Shown here one piece after another: positions 27 through 29,792 of a stretch of 29,792 nucleotides of DNA (positions are counted from its first letter, which is position 1; every line of letters starts with the position of its first letter). Source of the stretch: a virus (Duplodnaviria; Caudoviricetes); IMG/VR virus record IMGVR_UViG_3300011339_000381, positions 1-29,792 of that record, one strand, 5' to 3'. The notes beneath the pieces were generated by a model. That model was not told where the DNA came from and ran no database searches. It saw only the letters and a list, made by a program, of their open reading frames with translations. The translations under genes were made by a program, and so were the position numbers.

Positions 27-379
27 AGTTCTTTATACTTTAAGTTTCTGTCTGTGTAGAAATGGCTAGGGTTTGAACAATGCTTGTTGCCACAGGACAT
101 TTTGATGGCTAAATGATCTATGGGTTCGCCATGTAGTTCCATATACAATAAGCGATTGCTTTGTGTCATTTGGCGTTCTTCATTTTTGTAAGCACCAAAG
201 ATATTGCCGTGGTCATTGCTACTGCCAATCCAAGCCCAGCACTTATCTATGTCTGTTTTGACTATGCGTTTGTGCAGTAGTTCTGTATCCCACGACCAAT
301 TGCCAATTCGATGTGTGATATTTCTTTTTGGACCTGGGCTGTATCCCTTTGGTCTTCCAATTGGTTTCTTTTCTTTCAT
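23..379 (-). CDS. His-Me finger/HNH-like zinc-binding protein with N-terminal AT-hook-like motif, probably nuclease-dead
   Basis: CWAWIG...NRLLYMELHG...SCGNKHCSNPSHF matches the phage HNH pattern CWxWxG...HR...H.C.N..C.NP.HL; N-terminal KKPIGRPKG; SD GAAAGG upstream. Confidence 0.7.
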   Translation of the reverse strand: MKEKKPIGRPKGYSPGPKRNITHRIGNWSWDTELLHKRIVKTDIDKCWAWIGSSNDHGNIFGAYKNEERQMTQSNRLLYMELHGEPIDHLAIKMSCGNKHCSNPSHFYTDRNLKYKEL

Positions 380-401
380 TATTTGCCTTTCGTGTTATGT
401 G

Positions 402-407
402 TATTTA
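402..407 (-). promoter_or_regulatory. TAAATA late-type promoter upstream of the HNH-like gene
   Basis: ACATAAATAC on the minus strand in the 380-416 intergenic gap; same core as the other sites. Confidence 0.5.
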
Positions 408-671: not shown

Positions 672-685
672 TTCTATGCCTTTCT

Positions 686-727: not shown

Positions 728-1840
728 TCAAAGTATTTCTAAATCCAATTCTATATCAAATCCAGTTTTAGTCCTAACAAAATTCCTTAAAGAAATTTGA
801 TCTACTTCATTTTCACATACCCAACCATCATGTTCTGTAAAGAACTTGTTATTGGTTTCTGTCAAATAATCAGTAATAGCACTAAGAACTCGCATCTCCA
901 AAGCAAAATACAAATTCCATTTCTGTTTACCTGTTATAGCACAAGTTCTTTGTTGACCTGTTTTAGTTGTATAAGTTCTTTTTTGTAATGTGGGTTTGAT
1001 GTAATCCCACATAATTTTAATTTCATCACGAAGTCCTGAAATAAATGGATCTTGTTTTAAGTAATGAATTCTCGCAATATCTCCTTGTAATAATTGATAG
1101 ATATCACTGTCTTCATGTAGTCCTAATCTAGCACCTGCAAAAAGGGCATTGATTATTTCTTTGGCAAGTTCAGGAGTTATCTCTGCTCTTTGTGCCAATT
1201 CATTTCTTACTTGAGTTCTGTCTTTGAGATATGCTTGTATATTTGGTAACCACAAATCCATGGGTCCTTGTAGCCATAATGCTCTTTTGTTGTTTTGGGG
1301 TCCTACTTGTTTTATTGAATCAAGCACTTCTGGTATTTGTTGGCTATGTTGTAATAGTAATCTAGGAGCACAACATTGAATGTCATATTGATATTTTAAA
1401 TTACTATCGCTGAATACTTTACGCTTTACTTCTCGTCTTACTCGTTGTAATGGATGCCAATTTCTATTTGATTTATTTTTATATTTGAATACCTTAGTGC
1501 TGAGTTCTTCGTTAAATTCTTCTTTGGCCCAATCAACAGCATTGACTTGTAATACACATGTAGACATTGAGCCAGTTTGTAAACTACTAACTCCTTGTGG
1601 ATTTAATTTATATTTCTTACTAACATGACTTAGACTGCTGTAATGCTGATCAGTGCAAATCAATAATGTATCTCTTAGATATTTTGATAATGGATTACTG
1701 CTAATACCAAAATATCGGTCTATATAACGAGTGCTCCAACTGCGTTCTTTAGTTTCGCTAAAACAAGCACAGGCAAATCCAATGGCTCGTTTAATTCGTC
1801 TTGCTACTCTAGGATCATTAAAGTTTGGTGTGTAAGTCAT
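728..1840 (-). CDS. Stand-alone superfamily-A polymerase-like protein (TV-Pol-like; candidate primase/replication initiator) with N-terminal putative DNA-binding domain
   Basis: Motifs in order: SNRNWHPLQ...KRKVF (GR/NLQ region), YDIQCCAP (motif A, D153), AKEIINALFAG (motif B-like, K227), FTEHDG (motif C, H337-D338). No exonuclease or helicase domain. Confidence 0.7.
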   Translation of the reverse strand: MTYTPNFNDPRVARRIKRAIGFACACFSETKERSWSTRYIDRYFGISSNPLSKYLRDTLLICTDQHYSSLSHVSKKYKLNPQGVSSLQTGSMSTCVLQVNAVDWAKEEFNEELSTKVFKYKNKSNRNWHPLQRVRREVKRKVFSDSNLKYQYDIQCCAPRLLLQHSQQIPEVLDSIKQVGPQNNKRALWLQGPMDLWLPNIQAYLKDRTQVRNELAQRAEITPELAKEIINALFAGARLGLHEDSDIYQLLQGDIARIHYLKQDPFISGLRDEIKIMWDYIKPTLQKRTYTTKTGQQRTCAITGKQKWNLYFALEMRVLSAITDYLTETNNKFFTEHDGWVCENEVDQISLRNFVRTKTGFDIELDLEIL

Positions 1841-2262
1841 TTTTTACCGCCAAACAACTTATCAAAGTCAGGTGTAGTGGATTTTTTCATGCCCTGTTCT
1901 TCAAATACTATTCTTGGTATTTCGTAGATGTCACTCATTAATTGACTGAGTTCTTCAATACCATCACACTGTCTTGGACTTAGGTCTCTGCGTTTTGGGT
2001 CTTGCTCTAACTTATCAAGTATACCTTGTGCAAAACTTTTTGGTGTGTTATGCTCATTGTTTACCTGTGGCTGGCGTGGCAGTTTATCATTGGGTTTATT
2101 AAACCATTGTTTGAACTCTGGTCTTGGATCTGCGTTTTCCAAACAGAGATAACCTAGCATAACGGTTTTGAGCCAATGCTGGTCTTCAAATTTAACTGTG
2201 CGTAGCGTGTCTTTAGTGTTAACACCTACTCGCTTTTTGTAAGTGATAGTTTCTTTTGTCAT
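1837..2262 (-). CDS. Hypothetical protein, 141 aa, translationally coupled to the polymerase-like gene
   Basis: ORF track; ATGA overlap at 1837-1840; AGAAAGAAAG upstream of the start. Confidence 0.8.
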   Translation of the reverse strand: MTKETITYKKRVGVNTKDTLRTVKFEDQHWLKTVMLGYLCLENADPRPEFKQWFNKPNDKLPRQPQVNNEHNTPKSFAQGILDKLEQDPKRRDLSPRQCDGIEELSQLMSDIYEIPRIVFEEQGMKKSTTPDFDKLFGGKK

Positions 2263-2311
2263 AAGTCTTTCTTTCTATAAAAATGTATTTGCCAAATACT
2301 TGTGTTAAATG

Positions 2312-2349
2312 TATTTATGTATTATAGTCTATTTCTTAGAGTTAGTCAA
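2312..2349 (-). promoter_or_regulatory. Sigma70 promoter with a nested TAAATA element for the 141-aa/polymerase operon
   Basis: TTGACT (2349-2344), 17 nt, TATAAT (2326-2321), then TAAATA (2317-2312). Confidence 0.8.
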
Positions 2350-2363
2350 CAGAAAATTTAGCC

Positions 2364-2395
2364 AAAAAAAAAGCACCAAATAAATGGTGCTTTTT
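2364..2395 (-). terminator. Intrinsic terminator, potentially bidirectional
   Basis: AAAAAGCACCA-UUUAUU-UGGUGC followed by a U9 tract on the minus strand. Confidence 0.8.
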
Positions 2396-2496
2396 AATCT
2401 AGCATTGCGCTAGAATGTAGGGGCTTTTTGAGGCTTCATATACTTTGGCAAATAACGAGAAAGGAATGTCTTACGACATACAACACTTGCCCCTAC
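2364..2496 (-). ncRNA. Candidate structured small RNA 1 (about 133 nt)
   Basis: Begins 4-5 nt after TAAATA (2506-2501). Closing stem UGUAGGGGC/GCCCCUACA (2497-2489 with 2424-2416), GNRA hairpin AUGUC-GUAA-GACAU, second hairpin CUAGC/GCUAG, intrinsic terminator; no minus-strand ORF. Confidence 0.65.
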
Positions 2497-2503
2497 AATG
2501 TAT

Positions 2504-2674
2504 TTAGTTTAATTCTTCTAACTTTCTTTGCCGCAGAAGTATTTCTTTTTGAAGTTCGTGGCGTAGTTCTTCATCAGTCATTTCAGCACGAACTATCTTA
2601 ATGGCTTCAGCAATCTCCATACCAGTGTATAAACGATACATTTCTCGTATCTGTGTTAAGCAGTCTTGGTTCAT
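2504..2674 (-). CDS. Hypothetical protein, 56 aa (MNQDCLTQIREMYRLYTG...KLEELN); not in the ORF track
   Basis: Manual translation; ATGA overlap with the upstream ORF; GGAG upstream; its stop lies inside the TAAATA motif. Confidence 0.7.
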   Translation of the reverse strand: MNQDCLTQIREMYRLYTGMEIAEAIKIVRAEMTDEELRHELQKEILLRQRKLEELN

Positions 2675-3966: not shown

Positions 3967-4067
3967 TTTTCGTATTTTAGTCTAATTTGCACCGTCTGGG
4001 GGTCTACATACTACTAGTGTATTAATAATACTAAATTATACCATAGTAATTTCGTATTAGTTGACAC

Positions 4068-4103
4068 AAAAGAAAGCCCGGGAAATATGCCTAAAACCCG
4101 GGC
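4068..4103 (-). terminator. Intrinsic terminator ending the late region and sRNA 2
   Basis: 7-bp GC stem, 14-nt loop, UUUCUUUU. Confidence 0.75.
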
Positions 4104-4151
4104 AGTCTCATTTTCAAGGATATACTCAAAGCCTGGTCAAAAACTTTAAGC
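4068..4151 (-). ncRNA. Candidate small RNA 2 (about 84 nt)
   Basis: Starts 5 nt after TAAATA (4162-4157) at the first base of stem GCUUAAAG/CUUUGAGU; linker contains UCCUUGAA; ends in a GCCCGGG/CCCGGGC stem plus UUUCUUUU. Confidence 0.55.
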
Positions 4152-4159
4152 ACTAGTAT

Positions 4160-4663
4160 TTATGTAAACTCTCCTTGTGGCATGTTGTCCCTGGGCTTGC
4201 CCAACGTAGGAGTAATATCTATTTCAAACTTAGTTTGTAGTTCTTCATAGTAGCCCATGGTAAACAATCGTTCTTCTGCGGTTTGTTCTACGGCACAGGC
4301 TCTAGTGTGTAGAAGTGTGCGTTGAGTTCTAAGTTTGCTGGGTCTGCGTGGCACAGCCCAACATTGTTCAAATGGCAAAGGATCAGCCCATGCCAAAAAC
4401 TCTTGAAGTTTTTCATCGGGCACATAGTAAACTGTCCACCAACTATTTGATTTTTTATCTTGATAAAATACTTGATCTTCTATTACGGGACAGTCCCATG
4501 GTAGTGCATTAAGCACAGCATAGTTGTAGTTGTCTGGTTCAGGTAAACTGTAATCAGTTATAGTAGTTAAAGGTCTAGTCCAACCAATGTGTTTTGCTAT
4601 TGCGATCCTAGGATCGGTGATGGTAATGTTTCTAGGCATTACCCATTTAGAGTCTCTTTTCAT
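4160..4663 (-). CDS. Hypothetical protein, 167 aa, possibly leaderless
   Basis: ORF track; CTAAGTA-GTAGT-ATG upstream with no SD. Confidence 0.75.
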   Translation of the reverse strand: MKRDSKWVMPRNITITDPRIAIAKHIGWTRPLTTITDYSLPEPDNYNYAVLNALPWDCPVIEDQVFYQDKKSNSWWTVYYVPDEKLQEFLAWADPLPFEQCWAVPRRPSKLRTQRTLLHTRACAVEQTAEERLFTMGYYEELQTKFEIDITPTLGKPRDNMPQGEFT

Positions 4664-12662: not shown

Positions 12663-12679
12663 AGTATTATTTAGCGTTT
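12661..12679 (-). promoter_or_regulatory. Late-type promoter AAACGCTAAATAATACTAT
   Basis: Identical 19-mer at 12661, 17784 and 23263. Confidence 0.8.
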
Positions 12680-23656: not shown

Positions 23657-23676
23657 CTTGATTGAAAGGAATCGCA

Positions 23677-24216
23677 ATGCATTATACTTGGACAAAATGT
23701 AGCACCGCCGACAGCGGAGACTTAATGGCACTTAGCCTAATGGTTGAGTTCGAAGTCAATAAAATATTCAACTTTAATCCTAATGTTCTAGCACATAACA
23801 TCGTGTTAGGCTTGGTAAATCAATTTTATACTGGCAGTAGTGATCTTATCTGTGGCGTTAGAGACAAAGATAATAAACTAATGGCTTATACATGGGCTAA
23901 GACCGGAGAACAAACCATATGGAGCACCGAACAAGTCATGAGCATCCGCATGGCGCATGTTGATCCTACACTTAGTTCACGCACACGCATAAAATTACTA
24001 GAGGATATGTTAGATATTTGGACTCGTTTCGCACAACTAACTAACACACCTGTTATTGCCAGTAGCACATTACGCAATGAGCAACAGGCATTTCTAAAAC
24101 TACACCAACGACGCGGTTATATCATTAAAGGTAGCACCGCATACTTAAGAGTAGACTTATCACATAAGCCTACTACGCTATTTGATAACCCGACACAAGC
24201 CACTCCTGCCAATTAG
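23677..24216 (+). CDS. GNAT-family acetyltransferase-like protein; the only credible plus-strand gene
   Basis: Start re-assigned to ATG 23677 (SD GAAAGGA); GNAT-like order LMAYTWA...MAHVDPTLSSRTR...AFLKLHQRRGY. Confidence 0.7.
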   Translation: MHYTWTKCSTADSGDLMALSLMVEFEVNKIFNFNPNVLAHNIVLGLVNQFYTGSSDLICGVRDKDNKLMAYTWAKTGEQTIWSTEQVMSIRMAHVDPTLSSRTRIKLLEDMLDIWTRFAQLTNTPVIASSTLRNEQQAFLKLHQRRGYIIKGSTAYLRVDLSHKPTTLFDNPTQATPAN

Positions 24217-24280
24217 TTGATACCTAGAGTAGAAACAGGCAAAATAACTCTAGTTCTTGATGGGGTTCCGACCTGTTAAC
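24150..24280 (-). ncRNA. Candidate pseudoknotted RNA 3' of dps, antisense to the GNAT 3' end
   Basis: Four nested or crossing helices plus an 11-bp hairpin; several G-U pairs form only on the minus strand. Confidence 0.5.
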
Positions 24281-24281
24281 T

Positions 24282-24716
24282 TTAATCTTCTAATGTAGAT
24301 TTCAACATCCATATGAACTTAGCCAATGCTAAGATTCTATCCTGGGCGTAATTGGCAATCTCTTTATGTTCTTCTTCATCTGCTACTGTCATCAGTTCTT
24401 CATAGCAGTCTTTTAATGTTACTAAGTCATCATAGACTCTGCTTAACAATACATCAGCCTTACCTTCAATGATATCAGTGGTAATCTCACTGGTATCTAA
24501 TACACCATATATGTCACAGGGCATGAACTCATCTATACTGCGTAGTAATTCACCTATAACATCAATTTGATCTTGTAAATCTTCGTAGATACCGCCAAGC
24601 AATGTGTGATCACTTTGGAAATTGCGTCCCACTATGTTTACATGTGCTACATGGCTGCGAAAATACGCAACAAAGTTATCGTTGAATACTTGTGTTAGTT
24701 GTAATGCTGTGGTCAT
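24282..24716 (-). CDS. dps: Dps/ferritin-like protein
   Basis: HVAHVNIVGRNFQSDH...YE...DVIGE matches the Dps signature H..HWN..G..F...H...Y......D..AE; C-terminal KFIWMLKS. Confidence 0.9.
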   Translation of the reverse strand: MTTALQLTQVFNDNFVAYFRSHVAHVNIVGRNFQSDHTLLGGIYEDLQDQIDVIGELLRSIDEFMPCDIYGVLDTSEITTDIIEGKADVLLSRVYDDLVTLKDCYEELMTVADEEEHKEIANYAQDRILALAKFIWMLKSTLED

Positions 24717-28961: not shown

Positions 28962-29792
28962 TTACGCTAGGCCTTTGCTCTTTAAGAATGCTTGAGCCGC
29001 TACAGGATCTAACATTTGTAAGTATGCTTGCTCGCCAGGCGTTAAACTTGCTGTATTTGGTTGGCCATTAATGATACTCATTGCTTGTTGCATGGTCATT
29101 GGCTCTCCAAATGTTTGTAATCCCCATGCTGTCTTAGGAGCATCAGGAACATCATTCCATTTATTGGCATCAAACTTACTGCCAGTTTGTAGCGCACGGT
29201 CGCCCCAGAAAAACTTGCTTTGAGCATCATTGGTTGTTTTGTAAAATGGTGTAGTTTCAATCATACCTGGATTTAGATACTTGCCGCCGCCTGTTTGTGG
29301 TCCTGGCACAACCGGCTTTATTGGAGGATTTACAGGAGGAACTACTACGCCATCTCCGCCACCGCCATCGCCTCCTCCACCATCTCCACCATCTGTATCT
29401 CCGGCATCATCGCCATCATCTGAATCATCACCGTCGTCACTGTCATCACCATCATCCGAATCATCCGAATCATCACCATCATCAGCATCTGCATCTGCAT
29501 CTGAGTCTGCATCGGCATCTGAGTCTGCGTCACTATCGGCGTCAGCATCTGAGTCAGCATCTGCGTCAGCATCGGCATCAGCATCCGCGTCTGAGTCAGC
29601 ATCAGCATCAGCATCTCTATCAGCGTCACTATCGCTATCACTATCGGCGCCAGCATCCGCATCAGAATCTCCGCCTATGCCACCATCGGCATCACCTGCG
29701 TCACCTGCGTCACCTGCGTCACCTGCGTCACCTGCGTCACCTGCGTCTCCACCAGCACCTCCACCTGCGTCACCTGCGCCTCCACCAGCCCC
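28962..29792 (-). CDS. C-terminal part (276 aa visible) of an Asp-rich repeat protein; 5' end lies outside the window
   Basis: The frame of track ORF 28962..29309 stays open to 29792 and encodes (GDA)n, (DA/DS)n, (DDS/DDG)n, GDGGG and a Pro-rich linker before the globular C-terminus. Confidence 0.8.
29349..29792. repeat. Low-complexity coding repeats, including TCACCTGCG x6 (29692-29745) and degenerate 6-bp GCATCN units
   Basis: Read directly from the sequence. Confidence 0.9.

Follow-up and report, generated by a model that had tools for sequence, protein, structure and literature searches.

Few phage small RNAs (sRNAs) have known targets. The c4 and CI RNAs are encoded upstream of, and co-directional with, their targets, and a second target site is located upstream of the RNA in the same transcript. 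The plasmid copy-number antisense RNAs CopA of R1 and RNAI of ColE2 initiate pairing with the leader of a replication gene through their loops; these RNAs are transcribed from the strand opposite their target and are fully complementary to it. As far as the accessible part of the source describes them, c4 and CI are RNase P substrates that are cut from precursors (PMC5499578), and c4 of P1 and P7 (Rfam RF01695) is, in the available part of its description (PMC12197685), a small, structured RNA with exposed segments that pair with mRNA of the phage itself around the ribosome binding site (RBS), a description that also suits the RNA predicted here; CI of the satellite phage P4 has the same mode of working. 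In addition, SviR, which is encoded by the Vibrio cholerae satellite PLE, is induced by the helper ICP1 and targets both genomes, according to the part of the preprint available to us (bioRxiv 10.1101/2022.04.08.487710).

The locus described here is located in a 29.8-kb piece of an uncultured tailed phage (i.e., the whole stretch of DNA analyzed, referred to as the window), which encodes an SU10-type capsid and portal as well as a terminase, and carries nearly all of its genes on the minus strand. The segment of interest sits between a 56-aa ORF (2674-2504) and an operon of 141-aa, 370-aa, 84-aa, and HNH genes; gene starts were called by a simple purpose-written script. Upstream of this segment, a sigma-70 site (3202-3174) is followed by genes of 93, 54, and 56 aa that run in the same direction as the RNA. 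This site is one of three sigma-70-type promoters identified here (3906-3878, 3592-3564, and 3202-3174), one of which is a perfect consensus; each precedes a small gene without assigned function, and this block is swapped for other genes in L130, the corresponding locus of the near-twin phage G009. Separately, a structured non-coding stretch at 4030-4150 (minus strand; fold z -2.26) lies behind a TAAATA at 4162 and may represent a terminator region or another small RNA, and the window end (29340-29792) consists of low-complexity coding repeats of Asp, Ala, Gly, and Ser.

We consider it probable that the segment 2497-2364 specifies a phage-encoded, trans-acting antisense RNA that has its own predicted TAAATA promoter and terminator, and that would pair with the leader of the operon encoding the 141-aa and PolA-fold proteins as well as with the HNH gene start, likely lowering translation (Table 1). 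The elements of this reading that can be taken from the sequences themselves are the fold, the promoter-like boxes, the terminator, the complementarity, and the co-variation across phages.

Table 1. Coordinates of the predicted RNA, its parts, its candidate targets, and neighboring features in the window.
Feature	Position	Strand	Basis or remark
Predicted small RNA, ~133 nt	2364..2497	-	5' end near 2496-2495; fold -46.2 kcal/mol, z -6.12
TAAATA box, predicted RNA promoter	2501..2506	-	Its TAA doubles as the 56-aa ORF stop codon
Closing stem, 9 bp, encloses pairing domain	2497-2489 with 2424-2416	-	Predicted fold
GUAA-capped hairpin	2466..2479	-	Complementary to 2265-2257 across the 141-aa start codon
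Open anti-Shine-Dalgarno stretch	2458..2467	-	Predicted unpaired
Seed hairpin, GCCA loop (2449-2446)	2441..2458	-	Complementary to 2296-2286 and 387-376
Second hairpin, GCAAU loop	2398..2414	-	Predicted fold
Intrinsic terminator, 11-bp stem + U9	2364..2395 (stem 2395-2368)	-	Sequence
Predicted operon promoters	2312..2349	-	Sigma-70 type TTGACT-17-TATAAT (2349-2321) and TAAATA (2317-2312)
Main predicted target, 141-aa leader and start	2257..2296	-	Three colinear helices, 2296-2286, 2276-2271, and 2265-2257 (11+6+9 bp)
141-aa gene	1837..2262	-	First gene of the operon; no family in Pfam, PHROGs, or NCBIfam
370-aa protein	728..1840	-	N-terminal domain and PolA-superfamily polymerase domain; predicted replication protein
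7-bp SD-type match before ORF 417-671	679..685	-	Not supported as specific target
Second predicted target, HNH gene start	376..407	-	Site 387-376, 12 bp, one G-U; own TAAATA 407-402
9-bp SD-type match before 23677 gene	23664..23672	+	Not supported as specific target

With regard to structure, the predicted fold of 2364-2506 on the minus strand has an energy of -46.4 kcal/mol and beats 200 of 200 shuffles (z -6.21), while the plus strand reaches a z of -4.80. An earlier note on this DNA, made by a model from the letters and their open reading frames, had described a multi-stem RNA; the closing stem, the GUAA hairpin (2479-2466), the second hairpin (2414-2398), and the U9 terminator that it listed are all in place on the minus strand, and the Rfam and folding checks that it had suggested yielded the shuffle result above and no Rfam match. 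Of the long unpaired stretch that the note had proposed, by contrast, only AUUCCUUUC is predicted to be open, while UAUUUGCCAAAGUA is predicted to form the hairpin with the GCCA loop. Within the window, no Rfam model matched the RNA at E <= 5, and searches of 19 and of 13 loci yielded nothing that reached the gathering score; a search of five genomes with RF01695 (C4) was negative throughout, with the controls also silent, and is thus uninformative, and ARAGORN called neither a tRNA nor a tmRNA. A 96% identical copy of the RNA is present in L130, where the GUAA loop reads GCAA, which keeps the GNRA type and introduces one mismatch to the target, and where the terminator stem survives one C-G to U-G change; the stems, whose conservation in relatives the earlier note had treated as decisive, are kept.

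A second structured element (24181-24290, minus strand), located between two convergent genes and also found at L134:2052-2156, matched Rfam Atu_At1 with 34 bits here and 41.1 bits in G002 (gathering score 60); comparison of G000, G002, and G009 reveals that one of its stems carries compensatory changes, and its own fold is no better than shuffles. As this element and the RNA have UUAUUUUGCC in common only in this genome, they were treated as separate.

The RNA element is real and is part of a family without an Rfam entry. Members have a common layout, which comprises a TAAATA box, a G six bases on, a closing stem starting there, a terminator, a leader, and the PolA-fold operon. Loci were gathered via the 370-aa protein and via a 20-nt motif; a stem-based search yielded 17 hits, and a search that used only TAAATA, non-coding sequence, and a terminator yielded 43 distinct hits. 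A closing stem of at least 8 bp is present in 26 of 33 curated loci (five of which were chosen by stem or by eye), as compared to 7.9% of shuffles and 6.4% of control sites, and in 29 of the 43 unfiltered hits. TCCT occurs in 32 and GCAAT in 18 of the 43 detected RNAs; GCAAU-capped hairpins recur in the family, frequently on the terminator, and may represent a stable fold or a protein-binding loop. RNAs of this kind were found in at least three phage clusters that have few proteins in common. When 12 of them were aligned directly, the TAAATA box alone was invariant, and no covariance model was therefore built; since the family RNAs do not align, membership rests on layout and not on shown homology. 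An alignable sub-family of eight members nevertheless shows double changes in 5 of 13 closing-stem pairs, all outside the pattern-fixed columns, and its covariation exceeds that of all 500 column shuffles; this control takes no account of relatedness, and columns 2-8 are pattern-fixed in most rows. Among nine related RNA pairs, 276 base pairs were unchanged, 33 survived through a double change and 22 through a single change, and 40 were broken.

Pattern scans identified 19 viral loci, all with the TAAATA-stem-terminator layout by inspection and only two with the polymerase within 2.5 kb, as well as 119 loci in prokaryote genomes, none of them with the polymerase within 2.5 kb; the prokaryotic loci resemble what we take to be REP-type repeats. 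A search of the literature, mainly of openly accessible papers, yielded no account of this RNA or of these phages. The catalogue of candidate viral RNAs in PMC10690425 may hold part of the family, and a search by term of three of its supplements found no member. As the family keeps its layout and function while its sequence turns over past alignment, alignment-based RNA searches would tend to miss it.

The proposed function is supported by the predicted pairing of each RNA with its own downstream leader. Own pairs formed stronger best helices than foreign pairs (-16.9 versus -12.7 kcal/mol; n=28), a difference matched by 0 of 100,000 permutations; the same count of 0 was obtained with two helices and with duplexfold, whereas an opposite-strand RNA control was not significant (17,542 of 100,000). 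The 28 RNA-leader pairs, some of which are mutually related, represent the 43 hits minus 8 doubtful ones, 2 duplicates, 5 near-duplicates, and 4 with a convergent next gene, plus 4 added from other searches. Leaving out the four pairs that had been noticed first (n=24) or restoring the eight dropped hits (n=32) again gave 0 of 100,000; by themselves, these eight hits show no significant own-leader pairing. Only 8 of the 28 RNAs ranked their own leader first. The window pair ranked 1 of 28 in both directions by best helix, and 11 and 2 of 28 by whole-RNA duplexfold. Furthermore, a seed common to all members would be invisible to a test of own versus foreign leaders.

TAAATA is found within the final 60 nt of 19 of the 28 leaders, and in 19 of these 19 the best helix falls inside the part predicted to be transcribed (73% for foreign RNAs); in 23 of 28 cases, where half would be expected, the best helix has four open RNA bases. 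Genes further downstream show weaker own-pairing (20 of 20,000 by mean and 615 of 20,000 by best helix; 22 loci, 133 genes), and upstream genes show no such effect (23 loci, 103 genes). When every start in whole genomes was scored, this RNA placed its own genome third of 15; the rank of the own genome lay between 2 and 9 of 15 in six polymerase-bearing genomes, and between 1 and 14 in nine genomes without the polymerase. Given these ranks, no single site is proof, and support comes from position together with the family, in which every member supplies a natural seed-target pair.

Within the window, the 141-aa leader and the HNH start rank first and second among 39 called starts, as they do among 35 in G009. 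The minus strand contains the 8-mer GGCAAATA at just two places, both downstream of the RNA, namely 2293 (in the 141-aa leader) and 387 (at the HNH start). The duplex with the 141-aa leader is the best of 7409 sliding windows (-26.1 versus -24.9 for the next), with the segment chosen after the fact. RNAcofold gives a net value of about -1 kcal/mol for the RNA and this leader because the closing stem must open, and the program is unable to model pairing inside a closed loop; a 26-bp duplex inside such a loop is topologically hard. For the 24-nt stretch, the HNH site is the best minus-strand helix and the 141-aa leader the third, the second lying within a coding region. The HNH site keeps 10 Watson-Crick pairs in L130/G009 even though its distance to the ATG has changed. 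An operator reading of the near-palindrome at 2299-2285 was also considered and was weakened, as one symmetry base is lost in L130 yet 10 bp of pairing persist there, and the HNH site lacks a palindrome.

The earlier note had suggested that one RNA coordinates the replication-side operon and may act on several genes, a proposal that holds for the 141-aa leader and for the HNH start, where the 12-bp match across the start codon is present as described and the gene is HNH by PHROGs, but not for the other two genes. The 7-bp match before ORF 417-671 does exist, but is indistinguishable as a target from generic Shine-Dalgarno (SD) matches; in a single case, L028, a 64% identical homologue of this ORF pairs at its start codon with that phage's own RNA. 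Likewise, the 9-bp match before the 23677 gene exists, but it drops to 7 bp in G009 despite the 96% identical RNA and reads as a generic SD match; the name GNAT that had been given to this gene found no support in Pfam, PHROGs, or NCBIfam. The caution against SD-only matches expressed in the same note was well placed, since 7 of 36 window leaders match the anti-SD stretch over at least 7 bases.

The TAAATA sequence is, presumably, a T4-type late promoter box. In the window, CTAAATA occurs at 7 minus-strand sites, every one of them before a gene or the RNA. Across 16 genomes, TAAATA ends exactly 5 nt before the ATG at 14 of 614 called starts, as compared to at most 4 at each neighboring spacing, which places the +1 at the sixth base after the box; with this spacing (e.g., at 12673 and 23633 in the window), some late mRNAs would be leaderless. 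G is the sixth base in 26 of 33 curated RNA loci and 33 of the 43 unfiltered hits, versus 36 of 141 other TAAATA sites. As the sixth base in the window is T and the fifth is G, the start of the RNA is given as two positions.

What we infer from these features is that the RNA is transcribed, where its 5' end lies, that it pairs in the cell, and in which direction it acts. The RNA would be made from the TAAATA box along with the structural genes and, since both use the same box, would accumulate at the onset of late transcription and brake the replication-side genes. The closing stem may protect the RNA, while the GCCA loop and the open anti-SD stretch would nucleate pairing, which could then spread toward the SD and start codon and block ribosome loading. 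The result would be lower translation of the 141-aa gene, which comes first on the replication side, and of the HNH gene; the polymerase would be affected, if at all, through translational coupling with the 141-aa gene, whose stop codon overlaps the 370-aa gene start (1840-1837).

An alternative that we consider unlikely is that the conserved GCCA(U) loop does the main job on a shared target, i.e., the AUGGC starts of many genes (own structural genes, host genes, or genes of a co-infecting T4-like phage) or a protein, with own-leader pairing as a secondary feedback. Of 48 family RNAs, 28 contain GCCA[UA] (control 5-mers, 4-12 of 48), which is unpaired in 24 of the 28, and AUGGC begins many structural genes. 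In the eight-member sub-family (L149, L150, L151, L160, L164, L166, L157, and L021), a GCCAUA loop is invariant and the genomes show no clear own site; the next gene is often not co-directional, and several members then show more conserved, structured-looking non-coding sequence. This alternative is also consistent with a PHROGs scan of 131 ORFs of 75-700 aa in four complete relatives, which found no sigma factor, helicase, or integrase. However, the loop sequence in the window, GCCAA, has its match in the leader, 24-34 nt ahead of the ATG, rather than in an AUGGC, and the strong co-variation of RNAs with their own leaders requires no outside target.

A bolder reading, doubtful but worth stating, combines these observations with antisense control of the own operon: the 30-40 kb phages, which use the TAAATA box and in which no sigma factor was detected, may be self-packaging parasites of T4-like giant phages, in which late machinery of the helper would switch the RNA on via TAAATA, the RNA would brake the replication operon via phage-specific seeds, and the GCCA(U) loop would pair with AUGGC starts of leaderless late mRNAs, including those of the helper. 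Helper dependence is a lead only, since the PHROGs scan covered only ORFs of 75-700 aa that span no boundary, and many ORFs could be assigned to no family.

A second alternative accepts the pairing and assigns it another outcome, i.e., activation or stabilization of the target, or early termination as with P4 CI, in place of a block of translation. In 7 of 19 leaders, one of the two best helices begins at a position from -3 to +1 relative to the predicted start of the transcript, and the strongest helix of the window on the 141-aa leader is upstream of the SD. We regard these outcomes as very unlikely, given that the best helix reaches into the SD/start region in 20 of 28 cases and that the window leader holds little structure to relieve (-2.4 kcal/mol).

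The segment could also be no more than the tail of the upstream operon, comprising its 3' untranslated region and terminator, with matches that arose by chance or through an old inverted duplication. At 25 of 33 loci, among them the one in the window, the RNA directly follows the end of a co-directional ORF, and the TAA of the box is the upstream stop codon in 8 of 33 loci as well as here; moreover, the site energies fall within the best chance matches in foreign genomes, and G-U use favors the RNA strands mildly (12 versus 8), a bias that leaves room for an inverted-duplication origin read at the DNA level. The fixed G at the sixth base, the stem beginning there, and the strand-specific own-leader pairing all argue against this explanation, as do the 8 of 33 loci that have no upstream co-directional ORF near the box, and we judge it highly improbable. 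The concern raised in the earlier note, that the region is simply the 3' untranslated end of the 56-aa gene and has no 5' end of its own, thus does not apply across the family, but read-through from the upstream operon may be an added source of the RNA in this phage.

For the 141-aa protein, encoded by the first gene of the operon that the predicted antisense RNA would control, no confirmed relative was identified in the viral scan; homologues are present in L089 and L052 by local comparison, and Atlas matches are leads only. The model of the 370-aa protein has a pLDDT of 90.8, and residues 109-370 match PolA-family structures (Z 11.7, rmsd 3.7, 214 aligned; VIA-align), with virophage replication proteins among its best viral fold matches; the N-terminal domain is winged-helix-like by secondary structure only. 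The protein has 491 homologues, a superfamily-A palm with two conserved aspartates, and invariant D153 and H337-D338-G339 residues; it matched nothing in Pfam, PHROGs, or NCBIfam, and nothing by tblastn against 50,697 cultured phage records. As far as TV-Pol is described in the accessible part of its report (PMC2579912), the two have a minimal superfamily-A polymerase domain in common, but the 370-aa protein has an extra N-terminal domain, and no D5-type helicase was detected in four complete relatives. A 10-nt minus-strand motif in the linker between the two domains (1549-1558) is repeated just past the stop codon (693-702), and an exact repeat of at least 12 nt (up to 66) between the polymerase gene and its 3' flank was found in 47 of 83 loci versus 5 of 83 for the control; this repeat is a possible origin or initiator-binding site. 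A 422-aa ORF of G013 (-9227 in coordinates of the oriented record) matches the polymerase profile weakly (E 3e-5) in a genome otherwise without it, and is possibly a distant replacement.

The alternative proposed in the earlier note, in which the 370-aa protein would use the RNA as primer, template, or cofactor, draws on the polymerase fold of that protein and on the location of most curated RNAs within ~2.5 kb upstream of its gene, but the loci were fetched through that gene, and RNA and enzyme neither vary nor occur together, as L001, whose protein is 89% identical, lacks a similar RNA, L130 combines a 43% identical protein with nearly the same RNA and the same leader before a different first gene, and five records that are at least 93% complete show the RNA layout and no protein-profile match (one with a weak local match, E 3e-5), so that, with the RNA traveling with the leader and not with the protein, we give this role almost no credence. 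Similarly, in L089 the homologue of the 141-aa gene stands behind another leader, which is accompanied by a matching other RNA.

Taken as an antisense RNA, the element can be compared directly to the systems introduced above. As in c4 and CI, the exposed segments are, by computation, complementary to the leader and RBS of a co-directional downstream mRNA. In contrast to c4 and CI, the stem begins at the predicted +1, which suggests a primary 5' end, and there is no sign of an RNase P precursor; GGCAAATA, as the equivalent of a second target site, is absent from the minus strand upstream of the RNA. The predicted target here is a polymerase-fold operon rather than an antirepressor or immunity operon of a temperate phage, and PHROGs detected no repressor, antirepressor, or integrase families, most small ORFs, including the 141-aa gene, having no family. 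The promoter is, furthermore, of the TAAATA type. With no Rfam match, no upstream site, and no sign of an RNase P precursor, the RNA is not filed as a member of c4 or CI.

CopA and RNAI differ in another way, as the RNA described here is co-directional with its target, is encoded apart from it without overlap, and is only partially complementary to it. SviR, as described in the available part of the preprint (bioRxiv 10.1101/2022.04.08.487710), resembles it in being an sRNA that acts in trans, is encoded by a small element, and has a promoter and a terminator of its own as well as several targets, whereas the phages here encode their own capsid, portal, and terminase; SviR could serve as a model for the reading of these phages as parasites of T4-like helpers. 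In at least three clusters of small phages, the family would link a T4-type late promoter to control of an uncharacterized polymerase-fold operon, which raises the question of the source of the factor that reads TAAATA in such phages. Overall, the comparison of these sequences suggests that the RNA is likely a phage antisense sRNA that works in a manner similar to c4 and CI, but represents a distinct variant, with a TAAATA promoter and a polymerase-fold operon as its target.
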